Both the position numbers and the translations under genes were made by a program. A stretch of 62,013 bases of DNA, taken from NCBI GenBank assembly GCA_051002015.1, contig JBPCMS010000034.1, positions 1-62,013 on the forward strand, written 5' to 3'. This stretch comes from Acidimicrobiia bacterium (GTDB lineage Bacteria > Actinomycetota > Acidimicrobiia > Spongiisociales > UBA5794). The notes under the pieces are model-generated. The model worked only from the letters and a program-made list of their open reading frames with translations, did not search any database and was not told the DNA's origin. Positions 14,661-38,861 of this stretch are shown here, piece by piece (the stretch's first letter is position 1; each line of letters opens with the position of its first letter).

Positions 14661-14768
14661 TGGCTGCGCCAGCCTGGGCCACCGCCCGCAGCGGCATGGC
14701 GCCGCGCAAAGGAGTAGACATCAGGGAACCGCGGGGCGAGGATGCCGCGCTACAAGGAGGAGGCGACC

Positions 14769-16370: not shown

Positions 16371-17681
16371 CTACATCCGGGCGTAGGTGTCGATGTCGGT
16401 CTCGAACTCCTGCACGATGGCTTGGGTCAGCGTCGGCCGGGTGTCGGCGATGGCGCCGAGGAAGTCGTCGACGGTGGCGCGCGTTGAGCCCGGGATCAGG
16501 CTGCATTCGGTGGAGCCGTCACCGAACACCTCGCGCTCGAACGCAGCTTGCGCTGCCTTGCGCGCCGCGAAGTCAATGTCGGCGGGGGTAAACAGCTGCG
16601 TGGCCTCCACGAGACGGTCGATGTCGATATCGTCGTCGGTGATCTGGGCCACGTAGCCACGCCAGATCGCCGCACGCGCCGTCTCGTCAGGCGGCCCCAC
16701 CGGCAGCACATAGTCGAAACGCCCGGGGCGGATGAACGCCGCGTCGAGGCTGTGGATGGCGTTCGTGGCGCAGACCAGCAGGTGGCGCGGCCGCTCCCTG
16801 AAGGCCGGGATCAGCTTGAGCAACTCGTTGGTGACCGCATGGGTCACCGGCCGGCCGTCGCGGGTGGCGGCGATCTCTTCGACCTCGTCGATGAACAGCA
16901 CCACCTCGTTGACCTCGACGATGCTGGCGAAGAACTCCCGCAGTGCCGCGGCCTGCCCGCCACCGACCGCCAGGTGGCTCGGGAACAGCTCCACGAATGG
17001 CCACCGCAGCCGCGAGGCGACGCCCTTGGCGAAGGTCGTCTTGCCCGTCCCGGGCGGGCCGAACAGGATGATGGCGCGCGGTGGGCGTACCCCGTGGCGG
17101 TCCGCCTGCTCGGCGCGCGCCAGTGGGAGGATGACGCGGCGCTCGATCAGGTCTTTCTCCCGCTCCATGCCGGCCAGCCTCTCGAACAGGCCAGGCGTGA
17201 CGTACAGCCCGCCGAGACGCTCCAGGACGTCGCCGCCCCCGCCACTGCTGAGCTCACGATGGTGGTAGCTGACGCCGCCGCGACGCGTGAACTGGTGCGC
17301 ACCGAGCGCCTCGGCCCCGGCCTCGCCGTCAGGCAGCAGCACCGAGACCCGCCGGACACCGCGCGCCGCCAGCCCGTCGACCAGGGCGTCGAGCAGCGCC
17401 CCGCCGACACCCTCGCCGCGGGCGCCCGACCGCACCCCGATTCGCAGGATCCACGCGTGATCCTGTTGGAGGTGGGCGACGGCCGCCCCCGTCAGTGCCC
17501 CTTCGCGCTCGGCCACCAACGCCATGTGCTCGGCGCCCAACGCGCTCACCACGTCGGCGAGGGGGAAGACGGCGGGTTGGCGGTCGGCGGTGGCTTCGGC
17601 CCAAACCGCCACCGCCTCGTCGAGGTCACGCGGCTCGAACGGCCGGATGTGGGCGGTGGTGGCCGGCCGGGTCGAGCTCAT
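16371..17681 (-). CDS. GNAT acetyltransferase fused to classic-clade AAA+ ATPase
   Basis: The N-terminal ~150 aa are GNAT-like (RSGARGEGVGGALLDALV). The C-terminal part has Walker A ILFGPPGTGKTT, Walker B VVLFIDEVEE and the sensor/Arg-finger region AFIRPGRFDYV. The start overlaps the stop of the upstream antiporter-like gene by 4 nt. Confidence 0.8.
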   Translation of the reverse strand: MSSTRPATTAHIRPFEPRDLDEAVAVWAEATADRQPAVFPLADVVSALGAEHMALVAEREGALTGAAVAHLQQDHAWILRIGVRSGARGEGVGGALLDALVDGLAARGVRRVSVLLPDGEAGAEALGAHQFTRRGGVSYHHRELSSGGGGDVLERLGGLYVTPGLFERLAGMEREKDLIERRVILPLARAEQADRHGVRPPRAIILFGPPGTGKTTFAKGVASRLRWPFVELFPSHLAVGGGQAAALREFFASIVEVNEVVLFIDEVEEIAATRDGRPVTHAVTNELLKLIPAFRERPRHLLVCATNAIHSLDAAFIRPGRFDYVLPVGPPDETARAAIWRGYVAQITDDDIDIDRLVEATQLFTPADIDFAARKAAQAAFEREVFGDGSTECSLIPGSTRATVDDFLGAIADTRPTLTQAIVQEFETDIDTYARM

Positions 17682-19174
17682 CCGCTCGAGACCCTGATCA
17701 GGTCAAGCAGCAAACCAGGCGCCACGCCGAGCAGCAGGGTGACGGTGGCGGTCACCAGCATGGGGCCCACCACGAGAGCGCCGGGCTCCGTGACGAACGG
17801 GGAGCGCAGGAGCCCGGTGGTGTCGCCCGGGCCGCCTGCGCTCACGGCCAGCGGCGCGTCGAACAACGCGGAACGCAGGACCCGCAGGTAATAGCCGGCC
17901 GACAGCAGCGTCGAGACGGCCAGGACGACCAACACCGCCCACTGCCCGGCCTCGACGGCACCCACGAACAGGAAGTACTTGGCGATGAAGCCAATGGTCG
18001 GTGGCAGGCCGATGATCGAGAGCGCGCCGACGGCGAGTGCGCCCATCGTCCAGGGCAGCTGCCTGCCGATGCCCCGTAGCTCGCTGGCGAGGGTCCGGTG
18101 GGAGGCCAGGTACACCGAACCCACGGCGAAGAACAGCGTGATCTTGCTGAACGAATGCCCGACCAGGTGCAGGACCGCGCCGGTGCGGCCACCCGGCGAC
18201 AGCAGCGCCATCCCCAGGATCATGTAGGAGAGCTGCCCGATGGTCGAGTAGGCCAGGATGCCCTTGAGGTTGTCCAGGCGCCGCGCGTGCCAGGACGCCA
18301 CCACGATGGTGACCGAAGCCACCACCAGCGTGAGGACACCCAAGCCGAGCTCGGCGACGAGGTCGGTACCGAACACGTCGAGCACGACGCGCAGCACGCA
18401 GAACACGCCGACATTGACGACGGCGACCGCATGCAGCAGGGCACTCACCGGCACCGGCGCCACCATCGCCGCCGGCAGCCAGGAGTGCACCGGCATCAGC
18501 GCCGCCTTGGCGATGCCCAGCAGGTAGAGCCCGTAGACGATCACGAGCAGCGTGCCGCCGGCGTCGGCGTCAAGGATCCCGCCCCGGACGAAGTCGAAGG
18601 TGCCGGCCTCGATGTAGGTCAGCACGATGGCGGGCAGCAGGAAAGCGATGCCGCAGCCGAGCTGGTAGGCCAGGTAGCGCCGGCCCCCCCGTGCGGCCTC
18701 GGGAGTTCCGGTGTGAGTCACCAGGGGATACGTGATGACCGTCAAGGCCTCATAGAACAGATACATCGTGAGGAGGTTGGCGGAGAACGCAACGCCGATC
18801 GTGGCTGCCATCGTCAGACAGAAAAAGGCGTGGAAGCGGGTCAGCGCCGGGTCGGGAGCAGTCCCGAGATACCCCATGGCGTAGACCGTCGTGAGCACCC
18901 ACAAGGCGGCTGCGGTGCCGGCTAGCACGACGCCGAGGGCATCGGCGCGCAACGCGATCGGTGCCTCCGGCAAGAACGTCGACAGCGTGAAGGAGACGGT
19001 GCCGCCGTCGCCCACCGCGGGCACCATGGTCGCCACCAAACCGAGCTGGGTGATGCCGGCGACGACCCCGCACAGCTCGCGGGCAGGCGTGCGATGGCGC
19101 AGCAGCACGACCCCGGCCGCGCCGAGGACCGGCACCAGCAGCGCCAGCAGCGGGGTCAGGCCGGTGACGTCCAT
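17678..19174 (-). CDS. Proton-conducting membrane transporter, NuoN/MrpD-like antiporter-type subunit
   Basis: 498 aa, polytopic, PF00361-type core (LYLFYEALTVITYPLV.., MPVHSWLPAAMVAPVPVSALLHA, AYSTIGQLSYM). Confidence 0.85.
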   Translation of the reverse strand: MDVTGLTPLLALLVPVLGAAGVVLLRHRTPARELCGVVAGITQLGLVATMVPAVGDGGTVSFTLSTFLPEAPIALRADALGVVLAGTAAALWVLTTVYAMGYLGTAPDPALTRFHAFFCLTMAATIGVAFSANLLTMYLFYEALTVITYPLVTHTGTPEAARGGRRYLAYQLGCGIAFLLPAIVLTYIEAGTFDFVRGGILDADAGGTLLVIVYGLYLLGIAKAALMPVHSWLPAAMVAPVPVSALLHAVAVVNVGVFCVLRVVLDVFGTDLVAELGLGVLTLVVASVTIVVASWHARRLDNLKGILAYSTIGQLSYMILGMALLSPGGRTGAVLHLVGHSFSKITLFFAVGSVYLASHRTLASELRGIGRQLPWTMGALAVGALSIIGLPPTIGFIAKYFLFVGAVEAGQWAVLVVLAVSTLLSAGYYLRVLRSALFDAPLAVSAGGPGDTTGLLRSPFVTEPGALVVGPMLVTATVTLLLGVAPGLLLDLIRVSSG

Positions 19175-19186
19175 GTAGCAATCCCT

Positions 19187-20719
19187 CTAGTCGTCGGCGG
19201 CGACGGCAGTCGGTGGGTTTAGCCGGTCGACGAGGTCATCGACCGACGCGCTGGAGTAGTCGAGCAATGCTGTCGGGAAGAAGCCGAACGCCACGATGGC
19301 GACCCCGAGGATGCCAGCGGTGACGGTCTCGCGCGGTCTCAGGTCGGCGGTGGCGTCCACGATCGTGCTGCGGATACGCCCGTGGAAGGCGCGCTCGAAG
19401 AACCCGAGCACGTAGGCGGCGGCGAGGATCACGGTCGTGACCGCAATGGCCACGGGCCAGCCGTGGGCGCGGAAGGCGCCGAGCAGGATGAGGAACTCGC
19501 CGGGGAAGCCGCTGGTGCCGGGCAGCGTGGCCGCACCGAGGCAGGCGATCAGGGCGAATGTCGCCAGCGCCGGGGTGCGCTGCGCCAGGCCGCCCAGGGC
19601 GGCGAGGTCGGTGCTCCCGACGCGCTGGTGGACGAAGCCCGCTACCAGCAGCATCGCGGTCGAGACCAGGCCGAGGTTCACGAGCAGGAACAGCGCGCCC
19701 TGCAATCCCGGGGCGTTGAGGCTGGACAGCCCGAGCATGGCCAAGCCAACATGGCTGACGCTGGCGAAGCCGAGCAGGCGCCGCAGGTTGGACTGGACGA
19801 GCGCGATGAGCGCGCCGTAGAGCACGGCCGCCACGCCGAGGGCGGCGATCAGCCAACTCCATGCTGCGAACGCTTCGGGTACCAGCGGCAGAACGAAGCG
19901 CACGAACCCGAACACGCCCATCTTGAGCCCGCCGAGGAACACCGCCATGCCGATGGGGCCTTCCAGCAGGGTGGTGGGCATCCAGGCATGGAAGGGGAAC
20001 ATCGGGGCCTTCAGGGCGAAGGCGAAGGCGAGCAGGAAGAACACCGCCGTCTGCGTGCCGAGCGGCACCGGCGAGTCCATCAGCACCAGAAGATCGAACG
20101 ACAGCGCGCCCCCGGATCCGGGTGCCGAGCGGTAGCTCACACCGAGCATGATGAAGCCGGCCAGCAGCGCGGCGGATCCCAACAGCATCGACAGCACGTA
20201 GCGCAGCGCCGCCCGGCCGCGCTGCGGCCCGTCACCCCAGACCTTGATGAGCACATAGGTGGGGATCAGCATGAGCTCCCAGAACACGAAGAACAGGATC
20301 AGGTCCACGGCGACGAACACGCCGATGGCGGCGGTCTCGAAGGCCAGCACCGCCATGAGGTACGCCTTGGGCTGGTACCGCACCGCGGTCCACGACGAGA
20401 GCATGACGACGACGACCAGCAGGGCGGTCAGCGGCACGAACAGGACGCTCACGCCGTCGACCGCGAGGTGATAGCTCAACCCGATCGACTCGATCCACGG
20501 AAGCTGCTCGGCGAACTGGAAGTCGGTCGTGTCCCGTTGGAAGCCCACCGTGAGGAGCAGCGACAGGCCGAGCACGGCTACCGCACCCGCCAGTGCCACG
20601 CGGCGCAGGGCGCGGTCCTTGCGTACGAAGCCGAGCGCAACCATGGTGACGACCGGCAGGAACACCAGCGTGGACAGGATCGGGAAGCCGGCCTGCTCGG
20701 CGGCCGTGATCTCGTTCAT
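19187..20719 (-). CDS. NuoM/NdhD-like antiporter-type subunit (paralogue 3)
   Basis: 510 aa. Has LSYHLAVDGVSVLFVPLT, FFVFWELMLIPTYVLI, PFHAWMPT.. and ASVSHVGLAML. There is a 4-nt overlap with the upstream gene. Confidence 0.85.
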   Translation of the reverse strand: MNEITAAEQAGFPILSTLVFLPVVTMVALGFVRKDRALRRVALAGAVAVLGLSLLLTVGFQRDTTDFQFAEQLPWIESIGLSYHLAVDGVSVLFVPLTALLVVVVMLSSWTAVRYQPKAYLMAVLAFETAAIGVFVAVDLILFFVFWELMLIPTYVLIKVWGDGPQRGRAALRYVLSMLLGSAALLAGFIMLGVSYRSAPGSGGALSFDLLVLMDSPVPLGTQTAVFFLLAFAFALKAPMFPFHAWMPTTLLEGPIGMAVFLGGLKMGVFGFVRFVLPLVPEAFAAWSWLIAALGVAAVLYGALIALVQSNLRRLLGFASVSHVGLAMLGLSSLNAPGLQGALFLLVNLGLVSTAMLLVAGFVHQRVGSTDLAALGGLAQRTPALATFALIACLGAATLPGTSGFPGEFLILLGAFRAHGWPVAIAVTTVILAAAYVLGFFERAFHGRIRSTIVDATADLRPRETVTAGILGVAIVAFGFFPTALLDYSSASVDDLVDRLNPPTAVAADD

Positions 20720-22281
20720 CTGCCCACGACCTCCGGTCGACCCATTGTCATCGCGGAACCTGCTGCGTCCTCGACCAGCTGCTCGACAGCCATCAACGAC
20801 GGGCGCATCGTCTGGATGAAGGGGCCGGTGCCGAGACCGATCCAGAAGATGAGGGCGGCGAGGGTGAGCACTATGCCGCGCTCGCGGCCGGTGAGGTCGT
20901 AGACGCGCTCGACCACCGCGGGTCGCGCCGCACCCATAAACCCCCGCTGGAAGTACGACAGCGAGTAGGCGGCCGTAAGGAAGACACCGACACCGGCGGC
21001 GATCGCCATCGACCAGTGCTGCTCGTAGGCGCCGAGCATGACCAGGTGCTCGCCGTTGAACCCGTTGGTACCTGGCAGTCCGATGCCGGCGAGGGCGATG
21101 ATCAAGAACGTGCCGGTCAACAACGGCGCGTGGTGGACCACCCCGCCCAGTTCACCTACCTCGGGCGGGCCGACCCGGGTGAACAGGAACCCGGCGACGA
21201 AGAACAGCCCGGCGCCAACGATCCCGAGGTTGACCATCTGCAGCAGGCCCCCCTCGAAGCCATCGAGGTTGAGCGAGAACAGGCCCAGCATCACCACGCC
21301 CATATGTGACAAGCTGGCGAAGGCCAGGAGGCGACGCAGGTTCGTCTGCCCGAGCGCCAGCAACGCCCCGTACACCGTGCCCGTGACCCCGAGCATCGCC
21401 ATCAGCCAGAACCAGCCGGAGGCGGCGCCGGGCAGGAGCGGGATCACGAAGCGCAAGAGCCCGTAGGTGCCGAGCTTGACGCCGACGAGGAAGACGCTCA
21501 TGCCGACGACGGGGCCGTGCTCGAGCACCTTCGGCAGCCACGTGTGGAAGGGGAAGATCGGCGCCTTGATGGCGAAGCCGAAGAACAGCAGGAAGAATAT
21601 CAAGGTCTGGGCCTCGGCGGGCACGCCGACCTCGAGCAGTTCCAGCAGTTCGAAGCTGTAGCCGTCGCCGGTGATCCGGGCGTGGTTGCGGCCTAACAGC
21701 AGGATGCCGGCGAGCATGAGCGCCGAGCCGACGGCCATGAACACGACGTACTCGCCGGCGGCACGCCGCCGGGCGGCACCGGTGCCCCAGCGCGTGATGA
21801 GGAACCAGCTCGGCACCAGCTCAACCACGAAGAAGAACCAGAACACGACCAAGTCGAGCGAGGCGAAAGCACCGATCATGGCCGCCTCCAGCGCCAACGT
21901 GGCCACCGCATAGGAGCGTGCGTCGCCGGTGCGGCTGCTGGCGGTGGCGTGCTCGGCATAGACGATCACCAGCAGGCCGAGCAGCGCGGTCAGCGGGATG
22001 AACAGCAGGTTGACCCCGTCGACGCCGAGATGCCAGCTGACGCCGAGCACCTCGGCGGAACGCTCGACGAACTGGAGGTCGGCGACACCGGCATTGAACC
22101 GCAGCGCCAGGAAGGCGGCGAGGACAGCCTCGAGCCCTGCGCCGCCGATGGCCACGGTCGTCGCCGCCCGGTCGTTGCGGACGAACTGCAGCACCGCGCA
22201 GATGACGAGCGGCAACGCGATCAGCACCGACAGGATCGGGAAGCCCACCTGCTCGGCGGCCATGACCTCGTCGAGGTTCAT
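20716..22281 (-). CDS. NuoM/NdhD-like antiporter-type subunit (paralogue 2)
   Basis: True start is ATG 22279-22281 (MNLDEVMAAEQVGFPILS), overlapping the upstream stop as ATGA. Has VSWHLGVDGVNLLFIPLT, PFHTWLPKV and ASLSHMGVVML. The ORF-track extension to 23001 is read-through. Confidence 0.8.
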   Translation of the reverse strand: MNLDEVMAAEQVGFPILSVLIALPLVICAVLQFVRNDRAATTVAIGGAGLEAVLAAFLALRFNAGVADLQFVERSAEVLGVSWHLGVDGVNLLFIPLTALLGLLVIVYAEHATASSRTGDARSYAVATLALEAAMIGAFASLDLVVFWFFFVVELVPSWFLITRWGTGAARRRAAGEYVVFMAVGSALMLAGILLLGRNHARITGDGYSFELLELLEVGVPAEAQTLIFFLLFFGFAIKAPIFPFHTWLPKVLEHGPVVGMSVFLVGVKLGTYGLLRFVIPLLPGAASGWFWLMAMLGVTGTVYGALLALGQTNLRRLLAFASLSHMGVVMLGLFSLNLDGFEGGLLQMVNLGIVGAGLFFVAGFLFTRVGPPEVGELGGVVHHAPLLTGTFLIIALAGIGLPGTNGFNGEHLVMLGAYEQHWSMAIAAGVGVFLTAAYSLSYFQRGFMGAARPAVVERVYDLTGRERGIVLTLAALIFWIGLGTGPFIQTMRPSLMAVEQLVEDAAGSAMTMGRPEVVGR

Positions 22282-24695
22282 CGAGTGCCCACGATCAGGG
22301 CCAGGAGCGCCAGCGCCAGGATGCTGCCGATGACCATCGGATGGCCCAGACGCCGCTCGATCGCCAGCAACAGCCGTTGGGCGCTCGCACCTGCGCTCTC
22401 CAGACCGCGCTCCACTCCGCTCTGGAAGACAGCTCGCTCCACGGCGTCGGTGATCCCGGCGATGATTCCGGTCAGCTTCAAGGCGCCGGTGTCGATCGGT
22501 TGGAAGACGGCCCGCTCGATCCTCTCGGCGAGGCCCGCAAACGCGTTGGCGACCGCGCCGAACACGCCACCCGTGTCGGCCGGTCGTTGGAAGACGGCCC
22601 GCTCGATCCGCTCGACGAGGCCGGCAATCACATCGGCGACGGTGCCGAATACGCCGCCCGTGTCGGAGGCGCGCCTGGCGGTGGCGCCCATCCGCGCAAC
22701 GGCACCGCGGGGGTGGTCCTGCCCCGAGTGGACGGCGCCGGTCGCTGCCGGCAGCCAATCGAGAGGCTCGGGCGCTTCGGCGAGTGCGGTGGCCCCGGTC
22801 TGCCGGCTGCGGAGGGCGGCGAACCGCGCCTCCCAGGTTGCGGACAGGGACACGCCTGGCCCAGTTGCCGGCGCCGGCGGTGGGGCGGGGCGGTCGAGCA
22901 CCGCCATGTCGAAGCGTTCGAGGGCGCGGCCCAGCGCCGCTGTCGGAGCAACGATGGCGCGACCGTAGAAGTCGTCGAGGTAGCCGCGGTTCAGCCCCCA
23001 CCAGTACAGGCGGCGCATGGCGGCAGGGCCCGCCGAGGCCGGCAACTCCTCCCGGAAGCGGTCGAGGTAGCGCGGGCCATACCAGCCGGAGAGCAACAGC
23101 AGGGCGATGGTGCCGGTGAAGACCGCGGTGAGGAGCACGTTGCCCAACGGCACGTCGACGCTGCCTGCGGCGACCTGGCCGAGCAGGCGCTGGAACCAGG
23201 AGCCGTCGAGCCCGCCGGGCAGGACGTCGACGGCCAAGCCAAGGGCGACGAGGCCGGCGAGGACGCCAAGGGCCACAACCAGGCGAGCCGTGGGGGTGCG
23301 GCTTGGCCGGCCCGCCTGGTGGGAAGGGCGATCATCGGCGCCATGGCCGGCATCGCTGGCGTGGTCCTCGTCGCCGGTATGACCGGCGAAGGCGACCGCA
23401 GTCATGCGCCGTGTTGAGAAGACCGCGGCGAAGGCCGCCATCACCGCCAGCGCCAGCACCACCCAGAAGTTCCCGGTGAGGCCCCCGGCCGACTGGAGCA
23501 CACGGCCGACCAGAGGTGCCGACAGCAGTCCCGCCGCCGCCACCAGGGCAACTACGGCCAGCGGGCGGGCAGTGCCCGCCGGGCGGCGCACCGCGGTCGG
23601 ATCAGGGCCGCCGTGGAGGTGGTGCAGGATCGACGGCGCGGTCAGGAACAGGTAACTCTTGTAGAAGGCGTGCGCCACCAGGTGGAAGATGGCGACGGCG
23701 TACAGCCCCAGGCCGCAGAACAGGAACATCAACCCGAGCTGCGCAGTGGTCGAGGCCGCCAGCATGCCCTTGATGTCGGTCTGCACGTAGCCGACGAGCT
23801 GCCCGTACAGCGCCGTCACCGCGCCGATGATGCCGACGGCGATCAGCGCGGTCGGCGCCTGGTCGTAGATCGGTGCCGAGCGCACCACGAGATAGACACC
23901 GGCGGTCACCATCGTCGCCGCATGCATCAGCGCGCTGGACGGCGTAGGCCCTTCCATCGCCCGCGCCAACCAGGTCCCAAGCGGCAGCTGCGCCGACTTG
24001 CCGGTGGCGCCGAGGAGGAGCAGCAGGCCGACCCCCTCGACGACGCCCCGCGGTAGGGCTGACGCCTGTGTGAAGACCTCGCCGTACTGCAGCGTGCCGG
24101 TGTGGGCGACCAGGACGAACATCGCGATCAGCAGAGCGGCGTCGCCGACACGGTTCATGAGGAACGCCTTCGTCCCGGCCTGGGCCGAGGCCGGACGGTC
24201 CCGGTAGAAGCTGATGAGCAGGTAGGAGCAGACCCCGACCCCCTCCCAGCCCAGGAACATGACTAGGTAGCTGTCGGCCATGACGAGGACCAGCATGGCG
24301 AACACGAACAGGGACAAGACGGTGAAATAGCGGGTGAAGCCGTGCTCGTTGTGCATGTAGTTGACCGAGAAGCGCGTCACCAGCGCGCTGATGCCGGTCA
24401 CCACGAGCATCATGACCACGCTCAGCGGGTCAAGCAGGAACCCGAAGTCGACGCTGAGGTCGCCGCTGTGGATGAAGCGGTAGATCGTGACCTGGCGCGT
24501 GCCCGGTTGCGCCACCATCGTCGCGGCGAGATACAGGCTGGCAAAGAAGGAGGCGAACACGGTCGCGACCGCGACCCGGGCAACGGTCACGTGCCCGTAC
24601 AGGCGCTCACCGGAGAGGGCGTTCAGGCCGTTGGCCACGGCGGCGCCCAGAGGTAGCGCGAAGACGGCGACGGCAACCAGCTCGAAGGCGCTCAC
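22278..24695 (-). CDS. dabB: NuoL/NdhF/MrpA-like subunit, DabB-type partner of DabA, with long repeat-containing C-terminal extension
   Basis: GTG 24693-24695 overlaps the dabA stop (GTGA). The core is NuoL-like (FGFLLDPLSVVMMLVVTGISALV.., FLGWEGVGVCSYLLI, GKSAQLPLGTWLARAMEGPTP). The distal ~370 aa carry a NuoL lateral-helix-like segment (YLDDFYGRAIVAPT..ERFDMAVLD), three ERAVFQ repeats and a final TM helix. Confidence 0.85.
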   Translation of the reverse strand: MSAFELVAVAVFALPLGAAVANGLNALSGERLYGHVTVARVAVATVFASFFASLYLAATMVAQPGTRQVTIYRFIHSGDLSVDFGFLLDPLSVVMMLVVTGISALVTRFSVNYMHNEHGFTRYFTVLSLFVFAMLVLVMADSYLVMFLGWEGVGVCSYLLISFYRDRPASAQAGTKAFLMNRVGDAALLIAMFVLVAHTGTLQYGEVFTQASALPRGVVEGVGLLLLLGATGKSAQLPLGTWLARAMEGPTPSSALMHAATMVTAGVYLVVRSAPIYDQAPTALIAVGIIGAVTALYGQLVGYVQTDIKGMLAASTTAQLGLMFLFCGLGLYAVAIFHLVAHAFYKSYLFLTAPSILHHLHGGPDPTAVRRPAGTARPLAVVALVAAAGLLSAPLVGRVLQSAGGLTGNFWVVLALAVMAAFAAVFSTRRMTAVAFAGHTGDEDHASDAGHGADDRPSHQAGRPSRTPTARLVVALGVLAGLVALGLAVDVLPGGLDGSWFQRLLGQVAAGSVDVPLGNVLLTAVFTGTIALLLLSGWYGPRYLDRFREELPASAGPAAMRRLYWWGLNRGYLDDFYGRAIVAPTAALGRALERFDMAVLDRPAPPPAPATGPGVSLSATWEARFAALRSRQTGATALAEAPEPLDWLPAATGAVHSGQDHPRGAVARMGATARRASDTGGVFGTVADVIAGLVERIERAVFQRPADTGGVFGAVANAFAGLAERIERAVFQPIDTGALKLTGIIAGITDAVERAVFQSGVERGLESAGASAQRLLLAIERRLGHPMVIGSILALALLALIVGTR

Positions 24696-27600: not shown

Positions 27601-28603
27601 CGACCCGCTCGCCGACCCCATCGGGGTCACGCGCCATCAGGGTCACGGGGTCGGTCGGCCCGTACGGGTCGGTGATGGCGAATGCGGCCAGACAGGCATG
27701 CCATAGCGAGGCGACGGCGTAGCCTTCGAGGTCGCGGGCACAATTGGCCTCGAGCGCATCGAGCGTGCCCCGGGTTCCGAAGTGGCGCCGTGCCAGGCCC
27801 CGCACGACACGGGCTTCGGCCTCGAGCCACAGCAGCCGCGTGTGCTCCTGGCCACGGCCGGTATCCCGCAGGCCATGGCAGTGCGCGTCCACCGCGGCGA
27901 GATACCCCTCCTGCCGATTGGCGGGAACGCCCAGCACGCGCAGCAGTCGCCCGACGGGCGCGCCGGTCGATGTGGCATCGGCCGCCAGGTGTGTCTCGGC
28001 GTCGCCGAGCACGGCGGCGGGCGCATCCAGGTCGAGCAACGCGCCGAGCCAGTCCACCAGCGTCCAGCCGGCCCCGATGCGTTCGAGGCTGGCGGCGAGC
28101 TCCTGTTGCGAGCGGCTGAGCAGCCGCGCCCGGGCGGCCACCGAGACGTCGGCGGCTATGCGGCGGCCGGCGTCGCCCGATGTCATGGCGTCGCGCAGCA
28201 CGGCGGGAGGGACGGCAGTCGCCCCATACAGGAGGTGCAGCTTGCGAATCTCGCCGTCGGAGATGGTGCGACCGCCAACCGTGCCGAGCACCTCGGCGGG
28301 GTCGAGCTCTGGGCGCATGGCGAACACGGCGTCCAGGTCGGCGTCGGCGATGCGGCCGGCGCGGTACCGGGCGCGTCCCAGGTCGACTGGCTCGTAGGCA
28401 CGGCCGCCGAGCAGCTGCTCGGCCTCGGCGACGGCGTGCTCGAACGGCTTGTGCTGCAGCCCGTGCAGGGTGTTGTGGTGGACGAACGTCGTCATCGGGC
28501 CTTGGCTGGGAAGCAGGTGGCCCCAGTGCTCGAGCTCGTGGGCGAGGTGTGCCCGGTGGTCCGCGAGCACCGCCGTCGACGTTCCGGGCGTGGGTGTGGT
28601 CAT
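24692..28603 (-). CDS. dabA: DUF2309 / UPF0753 protein, DabA-type (beta-carbonic-anhydrase-like subunit of DAB inorganic-carbon pumps), oversized at 1303 aa
   Basis: Family hallmarks are [19 protein letters not shown] near the N-terminus, [11 protein letters not shown] (Cys780-x-Asp782) and [26 protein letters not shown] (His961 and Cys976, 15 residues apart). Confidence 0.9.
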
Positions 28604-28613
28604 CGATGCACGG

Positions 28614-30071
28614 TCAATCGCTCAGCGCGGTCATGGCGCGAACGGTGGCGTCGATCAGGCCGAGCGCCAGGCCCGGGAGTACCCCCAGCACCACGGTCAG
28701 AATCGCCAGCGGCACCGCCGCAGCCAACTCGCGGCCGCCCAGGTCGGCCATGCCCTTCCAGCGGGCGTCGAGTTCGCCGGTGAACATCGAGGAAATGACC
28801 CGCAACGTGAACGTGGCGGTCACGAGGATGCCGAGGAGGGCGAACAGCACGAACAGGCCCCAGCGCTCGAACGCGCCGATCAGTGTCTGGAACTCGCCCA
28901 CGAACTGGGCGAGACCCGGCAAGCCCATCGACGCCAGCAGGCCCAGCACGGTGAGGCTCGTGTACACCGGCACCTGTCCGCTGAGGCCCGACAGCTGCCC
29001 GAGGTCCATCGTGTGGGTGCGGTCATAGATGATGCCGACGAGGAGGAACAGCCCGCCGGTGATGATGCCGTGGGCAAGCATCATGAACACCGCCCCGGAC
29101 ACGCCCGTCACGTTCAACGCCGCAATCCCCAGCAACACGAACCCCATGTGGCTGATCGAGGAGAAGGCGACAATCGCCTTGAGGTCGGTCTGGCGGAAGG
29201 CGAGGAAGGCACCGTAGAGGATGTTGACCAGCGCCAAGACGAACAACCAAGGCAGGAACGCCTCCAGGCCCAGCGGCAGCGTGTCGGCGACGCGCAGCAG
29301 GCCGTAGGCACCGAGCTTGAGCAGGACGCCGGACAGCATGATGCTCACCGGCGTCGGCGCCTGCACGTGGGCCAGCGGCAGCCAGCCGTGCAGGGGAAAC
29401 ACCGGGATCTTGACCGCGAAGCCGATGAAGAAGGCGAGGAACGGCGCGATCTGGAAACCGCGGGTCCACCCACCGCTGGCCGCCTCGAGCGCCGCCATGT
29501 CGAAGGTGTGCGGGTCGGCGGCGAGGTAGACCGCGAAGATGCCGAGCAGCATGAGGACCGAGCCGCCCAGGGTGTACATGAAGAACGTCAGCGTCGCCCG
29601 CGCCTTCTGCGGGCCGCCCCACATCCCGATGAGGAAGAACATGGGGACGAGGGCGATCTCCCAGAACACGTAGAACAGGAACCAGTCGCGCGCCACGAAC
29701 ACGCCGAGGATGGAGAACTCCAGCAGCATCATCCAGGCGAAGTACGCCCTGTGGTTGTGGTCCACCTTCAGCGACGCGATCAGGGCGACGACCGTGAGCA
29801 GGGTCGTGAGCAGCATCAGCGGAAAGCTCAGCCCGTCCACGCCGAGCGTGTAGGTCATGCCGAGCTCGGGGATCCAGGTCGCCTGCTCGGTGAACTGCGG
29901 ATTTGATGAGGAGCGGTCGAAGCTAGTGAGCAGGCCCCATGAGAGCACGAGGGTGCCGCCGGCGACAGCCAGGGCCACGCCCTTGGCGAGTGCAGCCTGA
30001 CCGCGGGGGAGCAGCAGGATCACGACCAGCCCGACGATGGGCAGCCAGGTGATGACGGTGAGGATTCCCAT
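28614..30071 (-). CDS. NuoM/NdhD-like antiporter-type subunit (paralogue 1)
   Basis: 485 aa. Has MTYTLGVDGLSFPLMLLT, FYVFWEIALVPMFFLIGMWGG, FPLHGWLPLAHV and SSISHMGFVLLG. The stop is 10 nt upstream of the dabA start. Confidence 0.9.
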   Translation of the reverse strand: MGILTVITWLPIVGLVVILLLPRGQAALAKGVALAVAGGTLVLSWGLLTSFDRSSSNPQFTEQATWIPELGMTYTLGVDGLSFPLMLLTTLLTVVALIASLKVDHNHRAYFAWMMLLEFSILGVFVARDWFLFYVFWEIALVPMFFLIGMWGGPQKARATLTFFMYTLGGSVLMLLGIFAVYLAADPHTFDMAALEAASGGWTRGFQIAPFLAFFIGFAVKIPVFPLHGWLPLAHVQAPTPVSIMLSGVLLKLGAYGLLRVADTLPLGLEAFLPWLFVLALVNILYGAFLAFRQTDLKAIVAFSSISHMGFVLLGIAALNVTGVSGAVFMMLAHGIITGGLFLLVGIIYDRTHTMDLGQLSGLSGQVPVYTSLTVLGLLASMGLPGLAQFVGEFQTLIGAFERWGLFVLFALLGILVTATFTLRVISSMFTGELDARWKGMADLGGRELAAAVPLAILTVVLGVLPGLALGLIDATVRAMTALSD

Positions 30072-30101
30072 GGCTGTCGCCTCGATTCCGGATCGTGGGG
30101 G

Positions 30102-31727
30102 CTAGGTCTGCGCCAGCGTCTTGGGCGCCGTCCTCGTCGCGAACTCGTGGTGGGAGTCGGCGGTCAGCCGCTCGTCGCCCACGCGCACGACCGTGCCGCC
30201 GTCGGCGGTGTAGTTGTCCTCGAAGTCATGAAGGCGCTCCATGACCGTGGGGTCGACGTAGTGGACGCCGGCGAAGTCGAGCGTGACCGTCTTGCCCGGC
30301 GGCAGGGCGTCGAGCTTGGAACGCAGCGGGATGAAGTTGTGAAACCCCAGGGCCTTGCGGAGTTGGATGGTGATCTGCTCGCCCTGCTCGGTGACGGCAA
30401 CCGCCGGCTTGAACAGGTTGCCCAACGACGTGCCTTTCACCAGTGCCCAGACCAGGCCCAGGACGATCCCGGCCGCCACCCCGATGAGCAGGTCGGTGAG
30501 CAACACGGTGAAGGCGGTGACGGTCATGAGCAGGAAGTCCACCTTGCCGACATGGAGCGCGTGGCGGAAGTCGTTGGGGTGAGCGAGCTTGAAGCCGACG
30601 ACGAGCAGGATGCCGGCCAGGGCGGCCAGGGGGATGAGCTCGAGCAGACCGGGTGCGGCGAGGACGAAAACCAACAGGAAGAGTCCGTGGAAGAAGTTCG
30701 ACCACCGCGTCCGGGCCCCGTTCAAGATGTTGGCCTTGCTCCGCACTACCTCGGCGATCATCGGGATGCCTCCCACGGCGCTGGACACCATGTTGCCGAC
30801 GCCCTTGCCGAGCAACTCGCGGTTCATGTCCGACCGGCGCTTCCAGGGATCAAGCTTGTCGACGGCCTCCGCGGTGAGCAGAGACTCGAGGCTGGCGACG
30901 AAGAGGTACAGGAAGATCCACTTGATGGCCGGGCCCGACAATACCTCCGAGAAGTTCGGCGAGATGAACCCGTCCAGAAGCCCGCCGCCCAGGTCGACGC
31001 GCGAGCTGCGCTGGTCAGCTCCCTCGCCGACCAAGATGTCGCCGGCCCCGTTGATGGCGGCGATGACAGTCCCGACGACGACCGCCACCAACGGGGCGGG
31101 CACGATCTTGCCCAGCGCTCCGGTCATGGGCCAGAGCACCATGACGAGCACGGCGGCCAGCCCGACGAGGGCGATCTCGGGAACCAGGTTCTGGAAGCTG
31201 GGTGGGATCTCGGTGAGGATGTGGAACCCGTGGGCACCAGGGTTCAGCCGGCCGAGGGCGACGTGGATCTGACCGGCCATGATGATGAGGCCGATACCGG
31301 CCAGCATCCCGTGTATAACCGACAGCGGGAAGAACCCGGTCATCTTGCCGGCCCTGGCGAAGTAGAGCAGGATCTGGAGCCCGCCCGTGACGACACCGAC
31401 GGCGAGCGCCGTCTCGTAGCCGAGCTCGGTGACGGCGCCGGCGACGATGACGATCATCCCGGCCGCGGGGCCGTTGATGGTCACATGAGAACCCGAGAGC
31501 AGGCAGGCGAGCGTCCCGGCGATGATGCCGGAGATCACGCCGGCGATCGCCGGGGCGCCGGAGGCCAGCGCGATGGCGAGGCACAGCGGCAGCGCGATCA
31601 GAAAGAGGATGAAGCCGGAGACGACATCGGTCTTGCCGTTCTCGACGAGCCCAGGCAGCCAGTCCTTCGGCGGGACAGGGCGCCCCTGCTCTGCCGGCGC
31701 GCTTGGGGTCTGTGGACCAGCGGTCAT
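30102..31727 (-). CDS. SulP-family inorganic anion transporter with C-terminal STAS domain (BicA-like candidate)
   Basis: ATG 31725-31727 (MTAGPQTP..) is preceded by AGGAGGAGG. It has a polytopic SulP core and a STAS-like tail (ITIQLRKALGFHNFIPLRSKLDALPPGKTVTLDFAGVHYVDPTVMERL). Confidence 0.9.
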   Translation of the reverse strand: MTAGPQTPSAPAEQGRPVPPKDWLPGLVENGKTDVVSGFILFLIALPLCLAIALASGAPAIAGVISGIIAGTLACLLSGSHVTINGPAAGMIVIVAGAVTELGYETALAVGVVTGGLQILLYFARAGKMTGFFPLSVIHGMLAGIGLIIMAGQIHVALGRLNPGAHGFHILTEIPPSFQNLVPEIALVGLAAVLVMVLWPMTGALGKIVPAPLVAVVVGTVIAAINGAGDILVGEGADQRSSRVDLGGGLLDGFISPNFSEVLSGPAIKWIFLYLFVASLESLLTAEAVDKLDPWKRRSDMNRELLGKGVGNMVSSAVGGIPMIAEVVRSKANILNGARTRWSNFFHGLFLLVFVLAAPGLLELIPLAALAGILLVVGFKLAHPNDFRHALHVGKVDFLLMTVTAFTVLLTDLLIGVAAGIVLGLVWALVKGTSLGNLFKPAVAVTEQGEQITIQLRKALGFHNFIPLRSKLDALPPGKTVTLDFAGVHYVDPTVMERLHDFEDNYTADGGTVVRVGDERLTADSHHEFATRTAPKTLAQT

Positions 31728-31828
31728 CGTGTTGCCTCCTCCTCGGGTGAGCGCCACGCCTCGGGGTGCGGCTGTGCTTCCTCCGCTCAGCGAAGGATGC
31801 ATGAATTCTTGATGAAAATCAAGCGGTT

Positions 31829-31846
31829 TTTCATGCTTGTTTCATG
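31829..31846. promoter_or_regulatory. Phased direct repeat TTTCATG-N4-TTTCATG in an AT-rich island of the divergent promoter region
   Basis: TTTCATG occurs at 31829-31835 and 31840-31846, an 11-bp period. The repeat lies within the only clearly AT-rich stretch near here (31795-31850, including the palindrome TTGATGAAAATCAA). It sits between SulP (minus) and the OmpR-type regulator (plus). Confidence 0.35.
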
Positions 31847-31919
31847 AGCGTCGTAGCGCCGCCGCACATGGCAGACTGTGCGTCCCAGCCTGAAGCCCCG
31901 GGACCGCAAGGAGGTGGGG

Positions 31920-32603
31920 ATGCGGGTGCTCGTCGTGGAGGACGAGGACAAGATGCGCGCCGCGCTGCAGCGCGGCTTGCGCGCAGCCGGCTACGCCGTC
32001 GACGGCGTCACCGACGGGGAAGCGGGCCTCGCCAGGGCGGTAGCGGGCGACTACGACGCCCTCGTGCTCGACATCGTGCTGCCCGGTATGGACGGCTTCG
32101 ACGTGTGCCGCGCGTTGCGTCGCGCCGAGGTCTGGACTCCGGTGCTGCTGTTGACCGCGCTCGGGGACGTCGAGGACCGCATCACCGGCCTGGACGCAGG
32201 GGCCGACGACTACCTCACCAAGCCGTTCGCCTTCGAGGAGCTGTTGTCGCGGCTGCGGGCGCTCATCCGCCGTGGCCGCCCGCCACGTCCAACCGCTCTG
32301 GCTTGCGGCCCGCTCACACTGGACCCCGCCACCCGCGTTGTGACCTGGGCGGGGGCGACCATCGACCTGTCCAGCCGTGAGTTCGCGCTGCTCGAGTACC
32401 TCATGCATCATGCCGGTGAGGTCGTCCAGCGCGCCACGATCCGCCGCCATGTCTGGGGCGCCCAGTCCGACGAGGAGTCGTCCAACATCATCGACGCCTA
32501 CGTGAAGAACCTGCGCGACAAGATCGACCGGCGCTTCGACGTCGACGTGATCGAGACGGTTAGGGGCGTCGGCTACCGGCTGCGCCACCAAACCGCCGAG
32601 TGA
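31920..32603 (+). CDS. OmpR/PhoB-family response regulator
   Basis: ATG 31920 after AAGGAGG. The receiver domain is MRVLVVEDEDKM..DALVLDIVLPGMDG..TALG. The winged-helix output is LSSREFALLEYLMHHAGEVV..VRGVGYRL. Confidence 0.9.
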   Translation: MRVLVVEDEDKMRAALQRGLRAAGYAVDGVTDGEAGLARAVAGDYDALVLDIVLPGMDGFDVCRALRRAEVWTPVLLLTALGDVEDRITGLDAGADDYLTKPFAFEELLSRLRALIRRGRPPRPTALACGPLTLDPATRVVTWAGATIDLSSREFALLEYLMHHAGEVVQRATIRRHVWGAQSDEESSNIIDAYVKNLRDKIDRRFDVDVIETVRGVGYRLRHQTAE

Positions 32604-32610
32604 GCTCGTC

Positions 32611-34020
32611 ATGAGCGCATGGCTGCGCGCACTGCCAACCAGCGTGCGCCTCGCCGCCATGACCAGCTTGGCCTTCCTCCTGCTCATGGTGCTGGTGGGC
32701 GCGGTCGTCTACCGCGAGTTCCGCGCCAGTCTGCGCGACACCATCGATCAGGGGCTGGTCGATGTCGCCGTCGTCCAGGCCAGGGCGGTCGAGGGGGCCG
32801 CCAGCGGCACCGGACTCGACGGAGACCTGCTCTCCGACCTGGAACCCGACCCCGACAGTGGCCTGACGCCGAGCGACCTGGAGGCTCAGATCCTGGCGCG
32901 GGACGGCACGGTGCTCCACGCCACGCCGGGCCTGGAGGGGATGGAGGGGCTCGTCGCCGGCGGGCGCCTGGTGCGGGTGGCTGCAGGCGTGCCCGTGTTC
33001 GGCGATGCCGACGTCAATGGCGAGCCACTACGGTTCGTCGGCACCGCGGTGGCCGACGGGTCGGGCCGCATCGTCGCCGTCACCACGCCGATCACCGCCC
33101 TGGCCGACGCCGAGCGCCTACTCCTGGCCGTGTTCGGACCGGTCGCCCTGGCCGGCAGCGCCTTCGCCGGGGTCGCCGGTGCGTGGATCAGCCGCCGCGG
33201 ACTGGCGCCGCTCGTGCGCATGGCCGCGGAGGCGGATGGCATCGGCGCCTACGACCTGTCCCAACGCCTTCCGGTGCCCGCCCGCCGCGACGAGATCCGC
33301 CGGCTCGGATCCACACTCAACCGCATGCTCGAGCGGCTTGAAGCCGCGGTGCAGCGAGAGCGAGACTTTACCTCCGAGGCCAGCCACGAGCTACGCACTC
33401 CCCTGGGCATCCTGCGCGCCGAAGTCGAGTTGGTCCGTGCCGCGGCCGGGGAGCCGGTCGCCCGGGAGGGTCTGGACAGCGCGCTGGAGGAGATCGACCG
33501 CCTAACCGCCGTGGTCGACGACCTGCTGTTGTTGGCCCGCGCCGACGCGGCCGCGGTGCTCGACCGCCGCCAGGTGGTGGACCTCGGCGCGCTGGCATCG
33601 GCGGCGGTTCAGCGGTTCGGCACCGTCGCCACGGCACGCCGCGTGACGCTGACCGCCAGCGGTACGGCCACCATCAGCGGCGACGCCCCGGCCATCGAGC
33701 GAGCGCTGGCCAATCTGCTCGACAACGCGCTGCGGCACACGCCTGCCGGCGGCGCGGTGAGCATCCTCGCCGAGCCCGGCACGCGCGGCGCCATCCTCAT
33801 CGTGCGCGACACCGGGCCGGGTGCGGAGGCGCAGACGCTGGCTACCCTGTTCGATCGCTATACGCGCGCCGCGTCGCGTCCTGGCTCGGCCGGGCTCGGG
33901 CTATCGATCGTCGCTGCCGTAGCCGCTTCCCACGGTGGCGGGGTGCGCGCCCGCAACCTGCCCGAGGGCGGCCTCGAGATAACCGTCGAGCTGGGCGGCG
34001 GCGACAGTGCCTCGGGGTAG
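32611..34020 (+). CDS. Sensor histidine kinase (two TM, HAMP, HisKA, HATPase_c)
   Basis: The H-box is FTSEASHELRTPL, the N-box is NLLDNALRHTP and the G-boxes are RDTGPG .. GSAGLGLSIV. It starts 8 nt after the regulator gene. Confidence 0.9.
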   Translation: MSAWLRALPTSVRLAAMTSLAFLLLMVLVGAVVYREFRASLRDTIDQGLVDVAVVQARAVEGAASGTGLDGDLLSDLEPDPDSGLTPSDLEAQILARDGTVLHATPGLEGMEGLVAGGRLVRVAAGVPVFGDADVNGEPLRFVGTAVADGSGRIVAVTTPITALADAERLLLAVFGPVALAGSAFAGVAGAWISRRGLAPLVRMAAEADGIGAYDLSQRLPVPARRDEIRRLGSTLNRMLERLEAAVQRERDFTSEASHELRTPLGILRAEVELVRAAAGEPVAREGLDSALEEIDRLTAVVDDLLLLARADAAAVLDRRQVVDLGALASAAVQRFGTVATARRVTLTASGTATISGDAPAIERALANLLDNALRHTPAGGAVSILAEPGTRGAILIVRDTGPGAEAQTLATLFDRYTRAASRPGSAGLGLSIVAAVAASHGGGVRARNLPEGGLEITVELGGGDSASG

Positions 34021-37810: not shown

Positions 37811-37812
37811 GG

Positions 37813-38763: not shown

Positions 38764-38861
38764 CGAAGTCTCCTGATCGGGTCCGTTCGGGCACAGTCTG
38801 CCCACCCAGACGACGCAAGGCAGACTGTAGGTTCGTCACCCCCCGCTGCGGGCTGGACCGT

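Follow-up and report, generated by a model that had tools for sequence, protein, structure and literature searches.

DAB-type carbonic anhydrase (CA) pumps are known from structures and assays only in two- and three-subunit forms (DabA:DabB, plus DabC in DAB1), and the 2026 papers on DAB1 and DAB2 treat DAB as a two- or three-subunit complex (10.64898/2026.05.01.722082; PMC13144422). What is encoded, then, by an operon in which a single DabA is embedded among five antiporter-like membrane subunits? The question was raised by a 62,013-nucleotide stretch of DNA from an Acidimicrobiia bacterium (contig JBPCMS010000034.1, assembly GCA_051002015.1), hereafter the window, which carries on its minus strand, between positions 16371 and 31727, a SulP-family carrier, a long DabA, five PF00361-type membrane proteins and a GNAT-AAA+ fusion protein. 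At the gene level, the five PF00361 genes and the SulP gene depart from the two-subunit or DabABC composition of DAB. Weighing gene order, conservation and residues, we lean slightly towards the view that this operon encodes one membrane complex, a multi-subunit DAB-type vectorial CA in which the extra subunits are included.

The eight-gene layout given in a first-pass annotation of this DNA was borne out exactly by an open reading frame (ORF) and junction check, with gaps of 30, 10, –4, –4, –4, 12 and –4 nt between consecutive genes. In order of transcription, these genes encode a SulP/SLC26-family anion carrier (30102–31727; 541 aa), Ant1 (28614–30071; 485 aa), DabA (24692–28603; 1303 aa), AntL (22278–24695; 805 aa), Ant3 (20716–22281; 521 aa), Ant4 (19187–20719; 510 aa), Ant5 (17678–19174; 498 aa) and the GNAT-AAA+ fusion (16371–17681; 436 aa), the membrane subunits being named here by gene order. 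The SulP ATG at 31727 is preceded by a GGAGGAGG ribosome-binding site. The dabA/antL junction is a GTGA overlap (24692–24695) that places the antL start codon inside the dabA stop, and ATGA overlaps are found at 22278–22281, 20716–20719 and 17678–17681, the last of them coupling the GNAT-AAA+ gene translationally to Ant5. With all genes translationally coupled or at most 30 nt apart, the cluster is one tightly coupled, real operon, as had been claimed. The same eight proteins, with the same lengths, had been called independently on the identical contigs of three JGI metagenomes (L088–L090). In an exact look-up, the window DabA was not on record, and the AntL and AAA proteins were matched at 100% identity. 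A consensus scan of the cluster returned no sigma-70-type promoter-like site, a scan that is uninformative in 70% GC DNA, and the five terminator-like hairpins found in the cluster, against 5.7 expected from shuffles, are uninformative at the same GC content.

Pfam searches confirmed every domain assigned in the first-pass annotation. PF10070 was found in DabA (E 1e-248), PF00361 in five operon proteins (E 4e-47 to 2e-70), with PF00662 additionally in AntL, PF00916 (E 1e-57) and a weak STAS domain (STAS_2) in SulP, and PF00583 together with PF00004 in the last gene. The earlier view that the cluster is neither Mrp nor Nuo also stood, since its antiporter-like proteins are only of the PF00361 type: small Mrp-type or other complex I genes were found neither in the operon, where the intergenic gaps, 30 nt at the most, are too short for them, nor among the 20 flanking proteins scanned.

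The conservation of this arrangement was assessed by a DabA pattern scan with one genome per species, which gave at least 600 matches, 594 of them confirmed; the ORFs of the best 80 were classified against the window proteins, and the counts given here use those 42 loci whose flanks were long enough on either side (L-numbers, from L001 to L090, denote the fetched related loci). The core Ant1-DabA-AntL-Ant3-Ant4 was kept in 31 of the 42, from Actinomycetota to Beta- and Gammaproteobacteria, so that the antiporter-like core (Ant1-DabA-AntL and two NuoM-like genes) proved to be co-conserved with DUF2309. The remaining loci were mostly smaller DabA-AntL(-Ant) forms, chiefly from Myxococcota. The expectation that the other genes would travel with DabA stood for SulP within class I, as defined below, and for a two-component system, found near 20/42 loci, and failed for Ant5 and the AAA+ gene as general features. 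The five-antiporter form was present in seven loci, every time with SulP upstream of Ant1. A DabA protein search yielded about 60 near-full-length relatives (1250–1340 aa), with metagenome-assembled genomes (MAGs) labelled Actinomycetota, Chloroflexota and Gemmatimonadaceae among their sources, and in the contigs examined (DabA identity 54–79%) the order SulP-Ant1-DabA-AntL-Ant3-Ant4-Ant5 was kept, with the response regulator and histidine kinase genes divergent from it. In a locus of proteobacterial type (1096-aa DabA, 42% identity), SulP-Ant1-DabA-AntL was accompanied by three further PF00361 genes and an NtrC-type regulator pair.

The relatives were sorted into three classes. Class I combines a long DabA (~1300 aa) with a long AntL (~700–840 aa), with or without Ant5; its members come from MAGs of Actinomycetota/Rubrobacter, from one MAG each with the labels Acidobacteria, Candidatus Nitrotoga and Pseudomonadales, and from the genomes of Rubrivivax, Polyangium and Roseovarius autotrophicus. 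Class II, found in Nitrosomonas, Methylococcaceae, Accumulibacter, Thiothrix and Magnetococcales, has four antiporter-like genes and shorter proteins (DabA ~1100 aa, AntL ~520 aa); class III comprises the small DabA-AntL(-Ant) forms. The full form with SulP and five antiporters (~1300-aa DabA, ~800-aa AntL) was seen in MAGs of Actinomycetota/Rubrobacter and in the genomes of Rubrivivax and Roseovarius autotrophicus. Most relatives carry four antiporter-like genes, usually with no adjacent SulP gene in the four-antiporter class, and Ant5 is confined to a subclade, being missing in L012, L014, L015 and L073 despite a long DabA or AntL. The long DabA insert and the long AntL C-terminus co-occur in the same loci. 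Small and expanded forms can coexist in one genome: in the Methylomicrobium lacus chromosome (L023), a compact DabA (898-codon ORF) and a DabB-like gene adjoin a four-antiporter cluster on the opposite strand, and a Thiothrix MAG (L036) has two tandem DabA-AntL pairs, a coexistence that hints at non-redundant roles. Two architectural variants were also noted. SulP and Ant1 were called as one 831-aa protein (PF00916 and PF00361) in L001 (7495–9990; GCA_030447585.1), which represents either a genuine fusion or an artefact of a frameshift or of gene calling, and in three Nitrospirota/Nitrospira MAGs (L017, L042, L044) the classification detected no antiporter-like gene adjoining DabA-homologous frames of 1346–1466 codons, which may be fusions or a different architecture.

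Is the DabA of this operon a CA of the DAB kind? The protein matched the solved DabA2 (9rd0_A) with E 4.5e-77, and in the alignment the DabA2 zinc ligands C351, D353, H524 and C539 correspond to C780, D782 (part of a CxDxR motif), H961 and C976; these positions are invariant in 84 aligned DabA sequences, except for one gapped sequence. The PF10070 domain with the Cys, Asp, His, Cys zinc site of a beta-CA, as in the DAB/DAC/MpsAB pumps, is therefore present. In an AlphaFold2 (AF2) model of residues 1–1200 (pLDDT 78.8), helices 842–869 and 872–895 were predicted (pLDDT 79–92) at the position of the membrane-inserting finger of DabA2, and residues 100–470 were predicted to be all-alpha, mostly at pLDDT 77–95, forming a ~370-aa insertion in the N-terminal domain. 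Compared with class II DabA, the window protein is longer by ~200 residues in the stretch from 185 to 423, and it has several further inserts compared with compact DabAs. A search with residues 100–470 against 1.84 billion representatives returned 28 relatives, nearly all of them long DabAs or short fragments of the N-terminal region, which points to a clade-specific elaboration. When the fold of the DabA model was compared with the PDB, no match reached E <= 0.001, and a DabA chain was itself absent from the matches, which makes this search uninformative about the insert.

The adjoining subunit, AntL, is the DabB equivalent, with the PF00662 and PF00361 domains and the position next to dabA of a DAB-type partner. 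It also passes the NCBIfam model of the NuoL subfamily (TIGR01974 NDH_I_L, 453 bits against a cut-off of 407.5), and its best PDB match is mycobacterial NuoL (8e9g_L, E 8e-87), far nearer than DabB2 (1e-37). AntL retains E151, R182, D185, K233, H258, H338, H342 and K346, and its alignment has a gap at NuoL K399/D400, the Lys/Asp of transmembrane helix (TM) 12. Across orthologues, E151 (in GWEG), D185 and K233 are invariant in 58/58 AntL sequences, with R182 read only from the alignment that shows the gap at NuoL K399/D400. In DabB2, the DabA finger takes the place of NuoL K399/D400 and the TM5 Glu of NuoL is replaced by Ile, with activity halved when the Glu is restored; in complex I, the TM5 Glu/Arg pair has been proposed to lie near the subunit interface and to modulate lateral proton transfer (PMC13144422). 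The loss of the TM5 Glu (Ile151 in DabB2), a DAB feature that releases the subunit from the 'closed' ion-pair state, is not shared by AntL, which has E151. AntL is thus a hybrid, DabB-like at TM12, yet retaining the Glu/Arg–Lys/Asp ion pairs of NuoL. Nearly all named AntL orthologues are annotated as 'NADH-quinone oxidoreductase subunit L', and a few as 'hypothetical protein'.

Beyond the antiporter core, for which the AF2 model gave pLDDT 80–95 and matched NuoL chains (E 7e-24), AntL carries an unusual C-terminal part. TM14 is followed, at residues ~440–470 (window 23286–23376), by a His/Asp-rich loop, GHTGDEDHASDAGHGADDRPSH, a position that is His-rich in most class I orthologues inspected, with a different sequence each time, and that could be a metal site or a proton antenna. 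After this loop come two TM segments, the conserved start of the NuoL lateral helix (556–600), a Pro/Ala-rich linker, three ~29-aa amphipathic repeats and a terminal TM anchor. Tandem Repeats Finder detected the repeats as an 87-bp tandem repeat at 22499–22666 on the minus strand (residues ~677–732; period 87, 1.9 copies, 86% matches), with a near-identical 29-aa unit, GGVFGxVAxxxAGLxERIERAVFQ. Read by eye, copies number ~2 to 4 in five-antiporter orthologues, a spread that suggests evolution by tandem duplication, and one in the four-subunit class. The idea of one repeat for each extra subunit was rejected, given ~2–4 repeats at a constant five subunits and pLDDT below 50. In class II AntL, H258 and K346 are replaced by Tyr and Arg.

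The pair can be set beside the solved DABs. DAB2 from Halothiobacillus neapolitanus (PDB 9rd0, PMC13144422) is alike in the PF10070 Cys-Asp-His-Cys zinc site, in the finger, predicted here, and in an adjoining PF00361 partner without the NuoL TM12 Lys/Asp. It is a 1:1 heterodimer of an 827-aa DabA and a 551-aa DabB, whereas the window DabA has 1303 aa, with its ~370-aa insertion, and the 805-aa partner is nearer NuoL than DabB2 and keeps the TM5 Glu; moreover, the present operon contains four more antiporter-like genes and SulP. In DAB1, a small DabC sits beside DabB where NuoM sits beside NuoL; it is half the size of NuoM, is not a PF00361 protein and has hydrophobic residues at the proton-path positions (10.64898/2026.05.01.722082). 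A NuoM-like neighbour beside AntL is therefore structurally precedented by the third membrane subunit at the DabB interface in DAB1 (Thermocrinis albus, H. neapolitanus), with the difference that the neighbours found here are full-length NuoM/MrpD-type proteins with intact charged residues.

Three of these neighbours, Ant1, Ant3 and Ant4, pass the NuoM subfamily cut-off (TIGR01972 NDH_I_M; 518, 403 and 449 bits against 264). Ant1 and Ant4 have the set Glu(TM5), Lys(TM7), Lys(TM8) and Glu(TM12), and Ant3 has the same set with the TM5 Glu displaced by two positions. Ant1 E138, K221, K252, H334 and E393 are each kept in at least 59 of 60 sequences (window included), Ant4 E148, K237, K266 and E408 are likewise conserved, and Ant3 K239, K269 and E411 are conserved in the long-DabA class. 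Ant5 is of the MrpD/MbhH type: it matched the NCBIfam 'putative monovalent cation/H+ antiporter subunit D' (E 1e-158, below the cut-off), has a Glu, Lys, His, Lys channel set, and keeps E142, K223, H248, H340, K344 and K399 in 11/11 sequences. Its best PDB matches were 6u8y_H and 6cfw_H, H-chain antiporter-like subunits of what we take to be the MBS and MBH complexes. On these alignments, all five membrane subunits keep the predicted proton-channel residues, AntL without the TM12 Lys/Asp, and every position tabulated is conserved throughout the class I orthologues. The best solved relative of SulP was 6ki1_A (E 3e-31), presumably the BicA membrane domain. SulP is not a BicA equivalog, given 148 bits against a cut-off of 880 on the NCBIfam BicA model, and its STAS_2 domain is weak; it is a generic SLC26/SulP protein by sequence and a candidate bicarbonate carrier.

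A putative regulatory link extends beyond the operon. Divergent from SulP, on the plus strand, lie an OmpR-family response regulator (RR; 31920–32603, 227 aa) and a sensor histidine kinase (HK; 32611–34020, 469 aa), which matched the NCBIfam cztR/silR/copR (E 2e-67) and cztS/silS/copS (E 3e-66) subfamilies, both below the curated cut-off; the CopS-like HK has two hydrophobic segments around a ~135-aa outside loop, followed by HAMP-HisKA-HATPase. The pattern TTCAT-N6-TTCAT was matched twice in the 62-kb window against 0.03 expected, and none of 100 shuffles reached two. Both matches fall within the 192-bp RR-SulP spacer, one facing each operon: the direct-repeat box TTCATCAAGAATTCAT (31801–31816, minus strand), ~75 nt upstream of the SulP start, is oriented with the dab operon, and TTCATGCTTGTTTCAT (31830–31845, plus strand) is oriented with the RR/HK genes, a position that suggests autoregulation of the two-component operon. 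The 11-bp repeat spacing fits direct-repeat sites of the OmpR/PhoB type. The box was found in only 9 of the 90 fetched loci; three of these (L088–L090) are copies of the window's own locus, and the other six (L002/L003, L004/L005, L008 and L011) represent four distinct OmpR-type class I loci, in all of which the box lies at the head of the SulP gene. An orthologous RR and HK pair occupies the same position in L002, L004 and L008, with only the HK shown in L011 and a weaker pair in L013. In L008 and L011, the sole other copy of the box is upstream of a relocated GNAT-AAA gene (L008 2986–3001). In L011 (3023–3270), a 77-aa ORF (3037–3270) stands between the box and the GNAT-AAA gene. The shared boxes thus link regulator, operon and AAA+ gene in one putative regulon, and the tie between the OmpR/HK pair and the operon, first proposed from position, gained support from a statistically rare box in the common promoter region.

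How might such a set of proteins work together? A cytoplasmic DabA with a zinc beta-CA site would dock by its helix-loop-helix finger onto AntL, which would be flanked by four further modules, namely Ant1, Ant3 and Ant4 of the NuoM type and Ant5 of the MrpD type, and the five membrane subunits would form a complex-I-like membrane arm without a redox module. Inward proton flow via AntL and via laterally, electrostatically coupled neighbour channels would gate the buried active site, and CO2 would be hydrated one-way to cytoplasmic bicarbonate. The use of more than one H+ per turnover would provide more driving force, or allow operation at low proton motive force (PMF) or at very low CO2. The co-transcribed SulP would offer a second, bicarbonate-type route, the divergent OmpR/HK pair would control both promoters via the TTCAT-N6-TTCAT boxes, and the GNAT-AAA+ protein would have been recruited into the same regulon in this lineage, with assembly, quality control or regulation as possible roles. 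We infer the physical assembly, direction, stoichiometry and substrate of this machine; its gene content, conservation, residues and shared box were observed directly. The hybrid residues of AntL, together with the DabC found at the NuoM position, would favour a laterally coupled chain over a lone DabAB with bystanders. The fullest form of the proposal, a redox-independent arm with four to five laterally coupled proton channels and a CA as its only catalytic head, is put forward tentatively, as a possibility that we rate a little short of even. If true, it would imply a vectorial CA with an H+/CO2 ratio well above one, tuned to atmospheric or lower CO2 or to a weak PMF, and a natural minimal system for sideways energy transfer between antiporter-like modules without quinone chemistry.

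Several points weigh against a single multi-channel complex. By our own estimate, about one H+ is energetically enough for a ~1000-fold disequilibrium, so that the benefit of five channels is not obvious. Not every extra subunit need conduct protons, as indicated by class II: its AntL (~526 aa; L020 and L048, by eye) appears to be without TM12–15, passing from TM11 straight into the lateral-helix start motif, one amphipathic unit and the terminal TM, and Ant3 is degenerate in the four-antiporter proteobacterial class (K to R, E to A/V). The C-terminal element of AntL was modelled with low confidence (pLDDT below 50), and its repeat number (~2–4) does not follow the number of subunits. The essential finger residue Glu444 of DabA2 aligns to Q880 with phmmer but to P889 with MAFFT, the Q880 position being Q or D in 14/16 class I sequences. 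Finally, genes for RuBisCO, carboxysomes or autotrophy were not found among the 20 flanking window proteins.

The alternative that survives best divides the operon into two machines, with DabA-AntL as an ordinary DAB and Ant1, Ant3, Ant4 and Ant5 as a separate Mrp-like antiporter that would balance Na+ and pH for Na+-coupled uptake by SulP. The MrpD/MbhH type of Ant5, its co-occurrence with SulP in the same subclade and the proximity of SulP to 6ki1_A agree with such a division, BicA being Na+-dependent. The chain of MrpA/MrpD-type modules is indeed what the operon shares with Mrp (MrpA-G) and with the MBH/MBS arms, from which it is set apart by the lack of equivalents of MrpB, C, E, F and G and of any module for hydrogenase or redox chemistry; to our knowledge, antiporter-like subunits are not known to work without those Mrp partners. 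The gene order also argues for one unit rather than two, the genes being interleaved (Ant1 before dabA, the rest after antL) and joined by 4-nt overlaps through dabA/antL/ant3/ant4, and AntL retains the interface-proximal TM5 Glu that the stand-alone DabB2 has lost. Furthermore, the common lack of an adjacent SulP in the four-antiporter class is at odds with antiporters that serve SulP. Although MpsAB homologues have been argued to use Na+ (PMC13144422), we consider the division into two machines unlikely.

A second alternative, which we hold to be quite improbable, makes DabA and the NuoL/NuoM-like subunits a module that docks onto a complex I core encoded elsewhere, with hydration driven by electron transfer instead of PMF, in parallel to the replacement of NdhF1/NdhD1 by NdhF3/NdhD3/CupA in NDH-1MS. 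The passing of the NCBIfam NuoL/NuoM cut-offs by AntL, Ant1, Ant3 and Ant4, the closeness of AntL to mycobacterial NuoL and its full NuoL ion-pair set with H258/K346 would all suit this idea, for which NDH-1MS is a precedent. Against it, neither the cluster nor the 20 flanking proteins that were scanned include NuoA, H, J, K or N or a peripheral-arm protein, and the cluster has its own complete chain, including a terminal MrpD-like subunit. The DAB-type beta-CA head, with a finger predicted to replace TM12b of AntL, is moreover a PMF-coupled design. NDH-1MS and NDH-1MS' (NdhF3/NdhD3/CupA/CupS and NdhF4/NdhD4/CupB) are alike in placing a CO2-hydrating head on NuoL/NuoM-type subunits as a vectorial CA, but their Cup proteins are unrelated to DabA, and they are redox-driven with a complete NDH-1 core. 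Pfam found no Cup domain in any operon protein, and the NdhF3 model scored 194 bits on AntL (cut-off 589) against 453–465 bits for the NuoL models. The likeness to NDH-1MS drawn in the first-pass annotation therefore stands as an analogy and goes no further, since the model scores place AntL and Ant1 with generic NuoL/NuoM proteins and not with NdhF3/NdhD3.

Reverse running, in which hydration of metabolic CO2 would drive the export of several ions and SulP would export bicarbonate, is very improbable, since near-equilibrium CO2 hydration yields a few kJ/mol (own estimate), too little for several protons, characterised DABs consume PMF (uptake is sensitive to carbonyl cyanide m-chlorophenylhydrazone, CCCP) and DAB2 is inactive without membrane potential, even though the COGNAT authors read multiple membrane subunits as several ions exported (PMC5700660), no autotrophy genes lie beside the cluster in the window and other loci, and a CO2-releasing carbamate kinase/OTCase operon adjoins the HK gene.

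The literature anticipates the operon only in part. Klimchuk et al. (2017), with COGNAT, described 'clade C' YbcC/DUF2309 operons in which ybcC lies upstream of a nuoL homologue and which also contain additional genes for NuoM (COG1008) and SulP (COG0659); the complex that they proposed would export several ions (PMC5700660). The neighbourhood logic is the same; the description differs in predating the known function of DAB, in proposing the opposite direction, and in containing no residue analysis, MrpD-like fifth subunit, long DabA/AntL, regulator boxes or GNAT-AAA. The claim that no system of this composition had been described must accordingly give way to this 2017 neighbourhood, and it holds for function and structure: no functional or structural work on a multi-antiporter DAB was found in the full-text literature, subscription-only papers being outside coverage. 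What is new here is the regulator-box link and the hybrid NuoL/DabB character of AntL, and the earlier emphasis on complete novelty and on the AAA+ gene should be toned down.

The four/five-antiporter form is widespread, being present in cultured Nitrosomonas, Methylomonas, Methylobacter, Methylomicrobium and Roseovarius autotrophicus as well as in Actinomycetota and Rubrobacter MAGs; among the cultured carriers, Roseovarius autotrophicus SHN287 (L016) has the five-antiporter form, and Nitrosomonas marina Nm71 and Methylomonas methanica have the four-antiporter form. One question it raises is how many protons CO2 capture costs in hosts of expanded DABs and what concentrating power it attains; another is that of lateral coupling of complex-I-type modules without a redox engine, long-range coupling being an old question in complex I research. 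Direct testing is feasible, as cultured hosts and a CA-free E. coli assay exist. In addition, the labels 'NADH-quinone oxidoreductase subunit L/M' on DAB-associated paralogues may inflate complex I counts in genome surveys.

The GNAT-AAA+ protein, in contrast to the antiporter core, is a lineage-specific recruit from a broad actinobacterial family and no core part. Its AAA domain is of the Cdc48/VAT/PAN type (E 8e-61 to 5vc7_A), with Walker A, Walker B and Arg finger present and the pore-loop aromatic absent (by eye). A Rubisco-activase-like role of the CbbX/CbbQ kind was rejected on account of this type and of a family common in Streptomyces and other actinomycetes; GNAT-AAA fusions of ~53% identity are common in Streptomyces, Kitasatospora, Rhodococcus and Mycobacterium, and the one Streptomyces locus examined had an unrelated context. 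The supposed co-conservation of the AAA+ gene with DUF2309 was not upheld, the gene being near only 2/42 loci and linked to DAB genes only in the window lineage and a few Actinomycetota/Rubrobacter loci. In six close relatives, the AAA+ and DAB genes lie on contigs of equal length, which indicates that they are linked there as well. It directly follows Ant5 in the window and in L002, a locus from an Antarctic cryptoendolithic (rock-dwelling) metagenome, lies beyond the HK gene in L008 and L011, and is absent from L001, L004, L013, L016 and L084.

The flanking genes are housekeeping genes. On the HK side, the minus strand of the window at 34144–38805 encodes a PALP enzyme, a carbamate-kinase-like protein (AA_kinase) and an ornithine/aspartate carbamoyltransferase, enzymes that handle carbamoyl phosphate and CO2; the PALP gene is also beside HK on the identical contigs L088–L090, and the carbamoyl-phosphate genes were not seen in more distant loci. 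On the other side lies a 493-aa ORF of high GC3 that runs towards the GNAT-AAA gene on the plus strand (14742–16223) and has no match in Pfam; at the corresponding position, the identical JGI contigs have a 484-aa protein, also without a Pfam match, followed by a Peptidase_C14/Y4kD_C protein.

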